Source: a virus
Reading direction: 5' to 3' (one strand)
Length of the DNA stretch: 64,000 bases
IMG/VR virus record: IMGVR_UViG_3300028591_004246
Coordinates: 1 to 64,000 of that record
Numbering within the stretch: position 1 is the stretch's first letter; each line of letters begins with the position of its first letter. Below are positions 1 through 64,000 of this stretch, in pieces. Made by a program: the position numbers and the translations under genes. The notes under the pieces were generated by a model. That model was not told the DNA's origin. It did not search any database and saw only the letters and a program-made list of their open reading frames with translations.

Positions 1-65
1 GAAAACAGATAAATCTCTTATTATTGAATTAGATGAATATAATGAAATTAAAATTAAACAATATC

Positions 66-95
66 AAGTTTGGTAATAAAAAAGAGCTTAACAGC
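66..95 (+). terminator. rho-independent terminator
   Basis: agagcttaacagctct followed by a T9 run. Confidence 0.55.
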
Positions 96-430
96 TCTTT
101 TTTTTTATATCTTAAAATAGAACATTTGTTCTATCGCGAGATCTTAAAACTAATACAATGATTGATATCAGTGGCGGCGAAAATTTTAGCACATCGCGCA
201 ACAGAAGTCAAATGAAGATTTTGTGAAAACACAAAGTGAACACAATTGTCCCAATAGTCCAGAAAGTAAGATAGTTTATACGGGTCAAATAAAGATTTTA
301 ATTATCAAAGCAAAAAATGATCGATCTACCTGCGGTTTCACAAAGTCTACACAATTAAAGAAAGTCGTTGACTTTCACATTAAAGAGCGTATACTAATAG
401 TTGTCCAAAGGAAAACAACGAAAGGAAATG

Positions 431-1138
431 GACATGCGTAAGGTTTTCGCTATTCTTGACATTGAGACTGTTACTGATGCTCGTTTGGCTTTTGATATTG
501 CTTGGATTATTTGCGATTCTAAGGGCAATATCCTTGAGCGTTATAATGCTCTCGTGAGTGAAGTTGTTAATAGTCCTTTTGGTATGGCTTTCTTGCGTCG
601 TGATTCTTTCATTAAAAATAAGGCTCAAATGTACATTGATGCTATTAATTTTCATGGTATTGATATCAAGTCATTTAAAGATATCATGCAAGATTTTAAT
701 AATATTTCCGCTCGTTATAATGCTAAAACTGTTATGTGTGCTTACAATGCTAAATTTGATTACAGTGTACTTAATGATAACGCTAGTTATATTTATGGTT
801 ATGGTGAGCAATTCTTTAATGATAATGTTGAAATTGTTGATATCATGACTATGGCATTGGCTACTATTTGTGATACTAATAAATATATTCTTTGGTGCAT
901 TCAGAATGGCATGATTACAGAAAAGGGTAATGTAAAGACTAATGCACAAACTGTTTATGCTTACATGCTTAATGATATTAATTTTGTAGAAGCACATCAC
1001 GCATTAGAAGATTGCGAAATTGAAAAGGATATATATTTTAAGGCTCGTAAGCGTAAGCAAAAGCAACATAAGCAATTTGCAATGCCTATGTTTCATTGCA
1101 AAGAATGGAAAAAAGTACAATCTCGCAATATAAAATAG
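431..1138 (+). CDS. DEDDh 3'-5' exonuclease (DnaQ-like)
   Basis: ORF with Exo I (FAILDIETVT), Exo II (YNAKFDYSVL) and Exo III (HHALEDCEIEKD) motifs. ATG at 431 (MDMRKVF...). No in-frame TGA. Confidence 0.55.
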   Translation, partial: DMRKVFAILDIETVTDARLAFDIAWIICDSKGNILERYNALVSEVVNSPFGMAFLRRDSFIKNKAQMYIDAINFHGIDIKSFKDIMQDFNNISARYNAKTVMCAYNAKFDYSVLNDNASYIYGYGEQFFNDNVEIVDIMTMALATICDTNKYILWCIQNGMITEKGNVKTNAQTVYAYMLNDINFVEAHHALEDCEIEKDIYFKARKRKQKQHKQFAMPMFHCKEWKKVQSRNIK

Positions 1139-1144
1139 TAATAA

Positions 1145-1172
1145 AAAAGGGTAGGATATAAAAGTCCTACCC
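1145..1172 (+). terminator. rho-independent terminator
   Basis: gggtaggat ataaaa gtcctaccc. Confidence 0.45.
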
Positions 1173-1559
1173 TAAATAATATTAACCAAGAGAAGAAAGT
1201 ATAATGTGCGGGAATTGTGTTGACTTTGTGAATTAACCGATTTTGACTTGACAATAATTTGTTCACATGAGATAATTATAATGGAGAGAGATCGACCTGG
1301 ACGAAAAATTATAACACAATCGCAAGGAAAAGTCAAGAGAAAATTTCAATCTACACAAAATCTCCATATTTGCCCAGATCTGCCGCACATCAAACATCTA
1401 ACTAAAAAGCCCAGGACGATCGCATCAATATTTGAATAATTTCATATCAAAGTTTAAACATATCAAAACATCGACGAGGGCGAAAATTATACCATGCCCG
1501 CATGAGATTTGTCAAGAAAAATTTTTCTTCACATTTCCCGCACAAATCAATCCTGAAAC

Positions 1560-1636
1560 TAGTTCAAGATAAAAAGCTTAATAGTTCAAGATAAAAAAGT
1601 TAATTAGTTCAATTTCAGACCAAAAAGTTCAATTCG
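1560..1636 (+). promoter_or_regulatory. array of four AGTTCAA repeats at ~22 bp spacing
   Basis: ctAGTTCAAgataaaaagcttaatAGTTCAAgataaaaaagttaattAGTTCAAtttcagaccaaaaAGTTCAAttcg, upstream of paralog gene 1776. Confidence 0.4.
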
Positions 1637-62063: not shown

Positions 62064-62077
62064 AGTTTAAAATAGAA

Positions 62078-62118
62078 AGGATAGGAAAATAAAATAAATT
62101 TTTCCTATCCTTTTTTTT
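62078..62118 (+). terminator. rho-independent terminator
   Basis: aggataggaaaa...tttttcctatcc followed by tttttttt. Confidence 0.6.
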
Positions 62119-62135
62119 AATATAAAAGGAATTTT

Positions 62136-62507
62136 ATGAATAGACGTCAACTGTTAGATAAAATTAGAACTCATTATCTTAAAGATTATTATAATTATAA
62201 TAAGGTAAGTTCCCAATTAAAAAGATATGAAGAACAAGGATTTAGTTATGATACAATAAACGATATCTTACATTATTGGTATGATATTAAAAAAGAAAAA
62301 CCTGAAAAATCTAATGGTGGAATTGCTATTATTGAATATATTTTAGTAGAGTATAATAATTGGAAAAAAAGCCAAGAGGAACAAGAAAAAACAATAAAGT
62401 TAATTAAACAAAACATTAATAAGTTAAATTATAAAGAAAAAGAATACACAGTTAATCCAACTCCAATTAAAAGGCCTCTGCATTTAAAATTATTTAATTT
62501 AGAATAA
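62136..62507 (+). CDS. hypothetical protein
   Basis: ORF. Confidence 0.4.
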   Translation: MNRRQLLDKIRTHYLKDYYNYNKVSSQLKRYEEQGFSYDTINDILHYWYDIKKEKPEKSNGGIAIIEYILVEYNNWKKSQEEQEKTIKLIKQNINKLNYKEKEYTVNPTPIKRPLHLKLFNLE

Positions 62508-62510
62508 GAG

Positions 62511-63950
62511 GTGTTTTTATTGAACAAGAATCAAATTAATAGTTTATATGATAGCGCTTCTGCGCTTCAAATTTTAGGATGTACAATGAAACATCCAAAT
62601 TTAATTATTAATAGTGACGGTAAATATACTTTTACAGAAGATGATTTTGTTCCTGAAATTCATAAAATTGCATTTGGAGCTTTATATAATTTAGCAATTA
62701 TGGGAACAACAAATATTACAGTTCAAGTAGTTTATGATTATTTATCTGATAGACCTAAATCATTAGGGGTCTTTCAAGCAAGTAATGGAGAAGAGCTTCT
62801 TACTAGAGCTAAAGAAGCAGCTGATTTTGCAGCTTTTGATTTTTATTATAATCGTTTAAAAAAATATTCACTTCTTAGAGGATATGCACGTGCGGGAGTT
62901 GACGTATCAGAATATTATAATTTTAACAATATTCTTAATATGAAAGAAAAGCAAGAAGAACAAGAAAGATTTGATTCTTTAACTTTAACTGAATTAGCTG
63001 ATGAAATTGATAGTTCTATCATGCGAGTTAGAGACGTATATGTTGATAATAGTTTAGAAGAATCTTATACAATTGGAGATAATCTTTTTGAACTTGTAGA
63101 ATCTTTAAAAGAAACTCCTGAAATGGGACTTCCCTTATATGGTGACATTTGCAATACAGTTACTAGAGGAGCAAGACTTGGTTGTCTATATCTTCGTTCA
63201 GCAGCAACAGGAGTGGGTAAAAGTCGTAGTCTTTTAGCAGATTCTTGTTATATGGCTTGCTCAGAAATTTATAATAATTCGACGCAACAATGGGAAAATC
63301 ACGGTAGCCCGCAACCTTCTTTATTTATTTCTACAGAATTAGAATTAAGAGAACTTCAAACTATGGCTTTGGCATTTATATCTGGTATTCCTGAAAATAG
63401 AATTTTAGATGGAGAATTACATTTTGATGAAGAAGATAGATTGAAAAAAGCTATAGGATTATTACAAAATGCTCCACTTTATATTGAATTATTACCTAAT
63501 TTTTCTGTAAAAGATATTGAAAATTGTATTAAAAGAAATTTAAGAATAAACAGAGTGCAATATATTTTCTTTGATTACTTATCTACTTCTCTTGGAATTC
63601 TTGAAGAAGTTGGACGTAGAACTCGCGGAGTTGCAATGCGAGAAGATAGTATTTTATTTTTAATATCAACTAAACTTAAAGAAATAGCAGTTCAATTCAA
63701 TGTTTTTATTATGACAGCGACTCAACTTAATATGGATTGGAAAACCGATCCGTTACCTGACCAAAATTTATTAAGAGGAGCAAAATCCATCGCAGATAAA
63801 ACAGATTTTGGTAGTATTCTATTAAATTCAACAGAAAAAGATGAACAAATGTTAGCTCCTATCATTCAAGAATTAGGATGTTCTATGCCTAATGTAAAAT
63901 TAAGTGTATATAAAAATCGTAGAGGTTCAATTGTTCAATCTTATATTTGA
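62511..63950 (+). CDS. DnaB-family replicative helicase
   Basis: GARLGCLYLRSAATGVGKSRSLL (Walker A) and IFFDYLS. Confidence 0.5.
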   Translation: MFLLNKNQINSLYDSASALQILGCTMKHPNLIINSDGKYTFTEDDFVPEIHKIAFGALYNLAIMGTTNITVQVVYDYLSDRPKSLGVFQASNGEELLTRAKEAADFAAFDFYYNRLKKYSLLRGYARAGVDVSEYYNFNNILNMKEKQEEQERFDSLTLTELADEIDSSIMRVRDVYVDNSLEESYTIGDNLFELVESLKETPEMGLPLYGDICNTVTRGARLGCLYLRSAATGVGKSRSLLADSCYMACSEIYNNSTQQWENHGSPQPSLFISTELELRELQTMALAFISGIPENRILDGELHFDEEDRLKKAIGLLQNAPLYIELLPNFSVKDIENCIKRNLRINRVQYIFFDYLSTSLGILEEVGRRTRGVAMREDSILFLISTKLKEIAVQFNVFIMTATQLNMDWKTDPLPDQNLLRGAKSIADKTDFGSILLNSTEKDEQMLAPIIQELGCSMPNVKLSVYKNRRGSIVQSYI

Positions 63951-64000
63951 ATGGTAGCCGATAAATCAACTTGTAGATTTAATCCAATTTTTGTAACTGA

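Follow-up and report, generated by a model that had tools for sequence, protein, structure and literature searches.

A strand-symmetric pentamer, TGCGG, is enriched across a clade of large phages and is probably a selected recognition word

The 64,000-nucleotide stretch of phage DNA analyzed here (positions 1 to 64,000 of IMG/VR record IMGVR_UViG_3300028591_004246; hereafter the window; 30.6% GC) contains the pentamer TGCGG or its complement, CCGCA, 140 times. The enrichment lies at the level of the DNA, is symmetric between the strands, is kept at the same density while individual sites turn over, and extends with dialects through the clade to which the phage belongs. With a probability of roughly 0.8, TGCGG is a positively selected, strand-symmetric word that is recognized by a protein. 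Attenuation of a helicase-nuclease, as at Chi sites, is the leading concrete mechanism, and the identification of a nuclease as the reader is tentative. Including the window and the 10 kb upstream of it, about 82 kb of an estimated 148-kb genome (about 55%) was covered.

Base composition predicted 24.3 occurrences of TGCGG plus CCGCA, an order-1 Markov background predicted 21, and dinucleotide shuffles gave 22.8 ± 5.1, with a maximum of 36 among 100 shuffles. The two complementary words took ranks 1 and 2 among over-represented 5-mers. The original prediction, made from the window alone, had put the count at about 90 against about 18 expected, which recognized the excess correctly and understated it. 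Neighboring words did not share the enrichment: relative to expectation, AGCGG stood at 0.86, TGCGA at 0.58, TGCGC at 0.82, and TGCGT at 0.51. The 4-mer GCGG alone was ruled out as the carrier, since TGCGG was 5.7-fold enriched and AGCGG was not. The single-step neighbors TGTGG (0.81 to 0.89) and TGCAG (1.13 to 1.45) were also counted, and no one-step neighbor was depleted. CpG was depleted overall to 0.67 of expectation, and TGCGG accounted for 14% of all CpGs. Hairpins, terminators, and long dispersed repeats were ruled out as the source of the sites, which were unpaired and whose contexts shared no extended sequence. When all words of 4 to 8 nucleotides were scanned against a codon-aware background, only the families of TGCGG and CCAAGAG emerged as independently over-represented, and the depleted words were either restriction-site-like (GATC, ACGT, ATGCAT, and CTGAAG) or homopolymers (long A-runs). 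The TGCGG features are the following:

Positions 1..64000, both strands: 140 TGCGG sites in a Poisson-like scatter, about 1 per 457 bp (from counts, shuffles, and gap lengths).
Positions 1206..62896, both strands: 23 copies of the extended form GTGCGGG (13 on +, 10 on -), against 0.45 ± 0.73 expected, about 52-fold.
Positions 1206-1212, 8386-8392, 24870-24876, and 57384-57390 (+ strand) and 5065-5071 and 7217-7223 (- strand): examples of GTGCGGG.
Positions 3879..7759, - strand: block of minus-strand genes where the + strand shows CCGCA in place of TGCGG (10 CCGCA versus 1 TGCGG; flip at 4.6-7.5 kb), with a GC skew of -0.46, which predicts about 1:7.
Positions 29518..30633, + strand: reverse-transcriptase gene of a diversity-generating retroelement, the only gene of at least 900 nt without TGCGG (site count per gene).

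The word was found in every reading frame, with sense sites distributed 17/24/36 and antisense sites 16/20/10 among the three frames and a further 16 sites in noncoding DNA; its density was alike in coding and noncoding DNA. When genes were shuffled with protein sequence and codon usage preserved, 18.4 ± 4.1 sense sites were expected against 77 observed (4.2-fold), and 7.4 ± 2.6 antisense sites were expected against 48 observed (6.5-fold). Individual codon pairs showed how the sites were accommodated. Cys-Gly pairs were written TGC GGN in 17 of 24 cases (TGC makes up 19% of Cys codons elsewhere), Pro-Gln/His pairs were written CCG CAx in 17 of 36 (CCG is used at 4% elsewhere), and Val-Arg pairs were written with the two rare codons GTG CGG in 15 of 48, where about 0.2 were expected. 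Of 38 CGG codons, 24 were preceded by TG, and 36 of the 71 GCG codons lay within T-GCG-G. A codon or amino acid preference was thus ruled out by synonymous and codon-order shuffles. The excess was drawn from transition and transversion synonymous alternatives alike, and very-short-patch-like conversion was ruled out, as no neighboring word was depleted; selection is therefore favored over a single mismatch-repair bias. The earlier observation of the word in all three frames was borne out. Of its proposed explanation, a signal at the DNA or RNA level rather than a codon preference, the DNA level is upheld by the codon-aware shuffles and the RNA level is not, given equal enrichment on the two strands.

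The 82 copies of TGCGG on the + strand and 58 on the - strand match the ratio of 14.6 to 9.6 expected from the excess of G over C (binomial p=0.73), and the two strands were enriched 5.6-fold and 6.0-fold. Under the codon-aware null, the sense strand fell slightly below prediction (77/125 versus 71% expected; p=0.022). The coding-strand bias is a composition artifact: the original prediction had tied the motif to the coding strand and noted a flip in the minus-strand gene block, and the flip is real but has no motif-specific cause, since the local GC skew explains it. No strand bias of TGCGG beyond composition was present. GC skew was monotonic along the window, which looks like a single replichore.

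Beyond the pentamer, a graded consensus extends to (T)GTGCGGG(A). Besides GTGCGGG itself, TGTGCGGG occurred 16 times against 0.15 expected and TGTGCGGGAA 6 times against 0.02 expected. The dependence on flanks was steep, with GTGCGGA enriched about 20-fold and ATGCGGA and TTGCGGT just about 1.4- to 1.5-fold. A few sites coincided with start codons. Regular spacing was ruled out: gaps were random, with a coefficient of variation of about 1.0, and per-strand density was one site per 0.8 to 1.1 kb, with single-strand gaps reaching 4.4 to 6.6 kb. Density was 2.5 per kb in genes recoded for TGA and 2.3 per kb in standard-code genes, with no difference between early and late genes, and the 10 kb upstream of the window was alike. 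The absence of TGCGG from the retroelement reverse-transcriptase gene suggests that this gene arrived recently and has not yet taken on the composition of the genome.

Related phages carry the same signal. TGCGG was the top 5-mer, at 5- to 8-fold, in all relatives obtained via GyrA (43 to 98% identity) and also in the closest relatives by Sak4 (61 to 65% identity), which were found in bins of metagenome-assembled genomes (MAGs). Positional conservation was ruled out. Compared with a 94.6%-identical relative, 16 TGCGG sites were shared and 13 were private, and 10.3% of motif columns differed, versus 5.3% of columns elsewhere; many of the changes were CpG transitions, such as TGCGG to or from CGCGG or TGCAG. 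From gyrB to dnaB, relatives at 43 to 65% protein identity shared only 2 to 4 of 17 site positions. Because sites turn over while density stays, it is density rather than position that is maintained. More distant relatives use dialects, namely CGCGG in locus L017 (21 versus 1.4 expected), NGCGG in L023, and GCGC-type words such as GCGCAA and TCGCGC in L016, and flank preference varies as well, with L008 favoring TGCGGC(A). No TGCGG-type word was found in SPbeta, Enterococcus phage VRE9_3, Mammaliicoccus phi6255, or two Bacillales prophages. TGCGG enrichment was also missing from Lactococcus phage 949 (L035), in which GCGCG occurred 0 times against 4.4 expected and CGCGT 0 times against 9.6. 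Phage 949 has in common with this phage a helicase, primase, RecJ, gyrase, NrdD, and PolIII set together with a suppressor tRNA.

Searches for a host identified only phage DNA or bacterial DNA without the word. A megablast comparison against a phage collection gave no match, pilin homologues led to bacterial contigs of 49 to 57% GC without TGCGG enrichment, the list of GyrA homologues was filled with phage relatives, and one contig scan yielded only phage contigs binned in MAGs labeled Bacilli, Clostridium, or Eubacteriales. A literature search for both TGCGG and CCAAGAG, within the library searched, found nothing relevant.

The second word, CCAAGAG (complement CTCTTGG), behaved similarly under the synonymous shuffle, with 38 copies against 5.7 expected. 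It was enriched across the same phage clade and in the cultured Enterococcus phage VRE9_3 (25 versus 4.1), stayed at expectation in phiEF24C, an unrelated Enterococcus phage (5 versus 4.9), and was just 2-fold enriched in an Enterococcus faecium megaplasmid. By this pattern the word seems to be a property of the phage lineage itself. The two words are coupled in one direction. Over 8 loci, a co-oriented TGCGG lay 12 to 61 nt downstream of CCAAGAG in 29 cases versus 11.7 expected, and within the window the same arrangement occurred 13 times versus about 3 expected, while the other three arrangements were at expectation. A few pairs reflect gene starts (ATG TGC GGG AAT TGT) or repeated tail-fiber peptides, and outside the latter all pairs listed for the window had the form TGCGGG. 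The copies and four of the pairs were located as follows:

Positions 1186..63595, both strands: 39 copies of CCAAGAG (22 on +, 17 on -) in several frames, against 4.7 ± 2.3 expected.
Positions 1186..1212, + strand: coupled CCAAGAG-N-TGCGGG at a gene start (ATG TGC GGG AAT TGT).
Positions 8361..8392, + strand: coupled pair of CCAAGAG and GTGCGGG.
Positions 57355..57390, + strand: coupled pair of CCAAGAG and GTGCGGG, within gyrA.
Positions 5065..5120, - strand: coupled pair of the two words.

The phage lineage probably holds TGCGG at about 2 sites per kb by using otherwise rare synonymous codons wherever the protein permits. Under the Chi-like mechanism, a helicase-nuclease resecting double-strand ends, either a host enzyme of the AddAB/RexAB type or a phage-encoded analogue, would read the word on the unwound strand, stop degradation, and switch to repair by recombination. 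Cuts by restriction enzymes, like headful ends, could fall at any position and leave two ends, so that both orientations of TGCGG would be useful everywhere. The strong avoidance of GATC and the three other restriction-site-like words points to heavy restriction pressure and hence to frequent double-strand breaks. Known Chi-like words include AGCGG in Bacillus subtilis, GAAGCGG in Staphylococcus aureus, and GCGCGT in Lactococcus lactis (PMC8022716). To judge from the words themselves, the GCGG core in common with AGCGG and GAAGCGG makes a Chi-type function viable, and the GCGC-type word of L016 may recall the L. lactis sequence. As in Firmicute Chi, which is read by AddAB/RexAB, the word is short, asymmetric, G-rich, and CpG-containing; it is the top over-represented oligomer of the AT-rich genome that carries it, occurs in all frames, and is kept in density rather than in position. 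Unlike Firmicute Chi, it is known here from phage DNA and in no host genome so far, shows no orientation skew, begins with T rather than A, and is coupled to a second, unrelated word.

In favor of this mechanism, Chi-accumulating phages exist (PMC12315714), and no homologue of the Mu Gam-like end-protection protein of phi6255 was found in the window or in related loci. Several results weigh against it. The Chi-rich lambdoid phages LLS and MD8 resemble this phage in accumulating a short word far above chance. Their sites are oriented 20:3 or 32:0 and clustered at one end, and they have no Rec module (PMC12315714), whereas in this phage TGCGG orientation is unbiased beyond composition, the sites are uniform over about 82 kb with no clustering, terminal or otherwise, and Sak4-like AAA_24 and RecJ-like genes are encoded. 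A phage of the class typified by LLS would also be expected to have no nuclease inhibitor. Cultured relatives with the same replication module showed no accumulation of the host Chi: in SPbeta (L009, 80-130 kb), AGCGG occurred 24 times against 24 expected, though oriented 21:3, and the count of GCGCGTG in phage 949 and of GAAGCGG in phage K was 0. Taken together, SPbeta, VRE9_3, phi6255, phage K, and phage 949 gave a negative result for the presence of the word in cultured relatives and for a buildup of host Chi in large Firmicute phages. The behavior of CCAAGAG indicates that such words can belong to the phage lineage itself, and its directional coupling to TGCGGG is not predicted by Chi. Of the earlier proposal of a Chi-like site, then, the match of the GCGG core stands, and the expected orientation bias, clustering, lack of an own Rec module, and accumulation of host Chi in relatives do not. 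Other Chi-enriched phages, in work attributed to Bobay et al. in 2013, reportedly accumulate a short recognition word likewise.

A phage-encoded reader that is not a nuclease is about as plausible as Chi-like attenuation, because of the behavior of CCAAGAG and the coupling of the two words. TGCGG and CCAAGAG would then be distributed self-identification words on duplex DNA, through which the machinery of the phage could act anywhere on phage DNA and not on host DNA. Possible readers are a nucleoid-type binding protein, a sequence-preferring Holliday-junction resolvase or nickase, and a terminase or packaging-initiation factor. Strand symmetry and uniform density suit a reader of duplex DNA, as does the equal density in early (standard-code) and late (TGA-recoded) genes; the signal is missing in cultured relatives, its dialect differs among subclades, CCAAGAG follows the phage lineage and not Enterococcus DNA, and the coupling between the words has a direction (29 pairs versus 11.7). 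On the other side, no candidate protein was identified in the roughly 55% of the genome covered, and no terminase, resolvase, or nucleoid protein is known to use a 5- to 7-bp word at about 2 per kb. It is conceivable, at a similarly tentative level, that the words constitute a virus-intrinsic genomic self code, in which short words on both strands, with lineage dialects (TGCGG, CGCGG, and GCGC-type) plus CCAAGAG, would enable phage machinery to tell phage from host DNA. Its possible carrier would be a large clade of uncultured SPbeta-like gut phages resembling the 'Agate' phages, and the code might be a viral analogue of Chi or of uptake sequences that is independent of any host enzyme. Uptake signal sequences (USS; AAGTGCGGT in Haemophilus) and the DNA uptake sequences (DUS) of Neisseria serve DNA uptake by competent Proteobacteria and resemble the TGCGG word in being strand symmetric, genome-wide, present in all frames, graded in consensus, divided into dialects, and subject to turnover. 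The part of this resemblance that was checked is the core, and the Haemophilus USS core GTGCGG is identical to that of the phage word. Unlike USS and DUS, TGCGG lies in a phage genome without an uptake step, and the extended flanks differ.

The remaining explanations are improbable to different degrees. A YorJ-like, DnaG-like primase encoded by the phage could recognize 5'-CCGCA-3' in the template, the 3' A being cryptic, and synthesize pppGCGG as a stable primer; at 30% GC such sites would be too rare and would hence be enriched to about 1 per kb per strand. Phage primases read words of this size on single strands (GGGTC, TGGTC, and GTGTC for T7 and GCA for SP6), the T7 and SP6 sites have a cryptic 3' base, and a 4-base GC core with one specific flanking base resembles the T7-type pentamers. 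A DnaB-like helicase and a primase are encoded here, and the per-strand density approximates the length of an Okazaki fragment. Such a role is nevertheless improbable, as spacing is irregular with the long single-strand gaps noted above, both strands are equally enriched without polarity within an apparent single replichore, and relatives with homologous primases (phage 949, SPbeta, and VRE9_3) have no such word. Primase sites are, to our knowledge, not enriched, unlike TGCGG. Agate phages are reported to replicate bidirectionally (10.1101/2021.08.26.457843). Comparably unlikely is a target of sequence-specific modification (methylation, phosphorothioation, or a hypermodified base), with the number of sites selected upward because modification density protects. 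Methyltransferase specificities typically consist of short asymmetric words that vary in dialect by lineage, with more than one to a genome, and multispecific C5-methyltransferases are well known from phages of the SPbeta family (mtbP is an annotated example in SPbeta). The original prediction had named this option, and it gained no support. Searches of the window and about 400 kb of related loci for two types of enzyme, the SPbeta C5-methyltransferase and the Dam-like methyltransferase of phage 949, found no homologue, and no Pfam methyltransferase domain was present in the approximately 45 window open reading frames scanned. Modification would in any case not explain over-representation: known modification targets are neutral or avoided rather than enriched 6-fold, and TGCGG is enriched while the restriction-type words are depleted. 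Motif columns change at twice the background rate, which is compatible with 5-methylcytosine decay and indicates that sites are not protected. Still less probable is the absence of any function, with context-dependent mutation or very-short-patch-like repair turning near-matches into TGCGG. The fast evolution of motif columns, with its many CpG transitions, and the overall depletion of CpG would fit, but no one-step neighbor was depleted, the excess came from transversion as well as transition neighbors and also from codon pairs such as GTG CGG, and flank dependence ranged from 52-fold for GTGCGGG to 1.4-fold for TTGCGGT. An RNA- or translation-level signal following the transcribed strand, also raised originally, can be rejected with near certainty. 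Raw counts are higher in the sense orientation (77 versus 48) and a few sites lie at start codons, but enrichment is equal on both strands after composition, antisense enrichment at least equals sense enrichment under the codon-aware null, and sites occur in all frames and in noncoding DNA.

The phage encodes a replication module in the order YorF-like, Sak4-like AAA_24, DnaB-like, primase, RecJ-like, and PolIII-alpha, which is the gene order of yorF to yorL in Bacillus phage SPbeta. Part of this module lies in the window, and its products are candidates for phage-encoded readers:

Positions 60083..63950, + strand: SPbeta-like replication and recombination genes (YorF-like, Sak4-like AAA_24, and DnaB-like).

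The DnaG-like primase gene lies just beyond the window end and matches the phrog_47 DNA primase (E = 9e-35). GyrB, GyrA, an ATP-dependent ligase, and 25 tRNAs are also encoded, homologous contigs reach 130 to 150 kb, and the PolIII of the closest cultured relatives is merely 35 to 38% identical. By these features the phage may belong to the 'Agate' clade described by Borges et al. (10.1101/2021.08.26.457843), whose members infect Firmicutes and recode TGA. In-frame TGA occurs in many structural-type (late-type) genes and in ThyX (25892-36594, 43737-45758, 47785-48408, and 51015-51398); a 1240-codon stretch without TAA or TAG holds 8 TGA codons, ThyX holds 5, and the replication genes hold 0. 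Together with a tRNA with anticodon UCA at 37867-37962, this distribution points to partial TGA recoding, as described for the Agate phages.

Other features of the window and its relatives were observed. The retroelement is complete, with a variable repeat at 28957-29059, a 103-nt template repeat at 29249-29351 upstream of the YMDD reverse transcriptase (29518-30633), and A in the template repeat at every mismatch observed; the variable repeat forms the 3' end of a fiber-like gene at 26795-29101. Inside the tRNA cluster, positions 41280-41927 (+) hold a complete ROOL RNA (Rfam RF03087, 298 bits), which contains 4 TGCGG sites. At 18437-19195 and 43947-45758 the phage encodes a sortase and a pilin-like protein of the isopeptide type, with an LPXTG anchor and GramPos_pilinBB/SpaA domains. 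The pilin is kept in dozens of related phage contigs. These genes imply that the host is Gram-positive and that the phage directs a change of its cell surface. RNA-related genes at 10629-11618, 11856-14267, 21767-23218, 48576-49217, and 52042-52830 comprise an RNA ligase, a major-vault-protein shoulder/SPFH-domain protein, a TROVE (Ro60-like) protein, a SpoU-type methylase, and an RlaP-like nucleotidyltransferase. GGGGG and CCCCC are wholly missing from the window (0 versus 18.4 ± 4.8 expected). In relatives L005-L007 (53% GyrA identity), the GATC count is 0, and the Sak4-like and DnaB-like genes are interrupted by insertions of about 0.3 to 1 kb (for example, L006 16144-18112 and 18814-20535), which may be introns, inteins, or homing-endonuclease insertions.

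If the word is Chi-like, the Chi sequence of a Firmicute host lineage not yet cultured would become known, together with a strand-symmetric use of Chi by a phage with its own recombinase, unlike the known Chi-rich phages. If its reader is encoded by the phage, a distributed code for self-recognition would be described in a virus for the first time. In both cases, TGCGG is a strong and easily computed marker with an influence on codon choice throughout a very abundant clade of gut and rumen phages of about 110 to 150 kb; it could help to link the phages of this clade to their hosts, and it supplies precise oligonucleotides for biochemistry.

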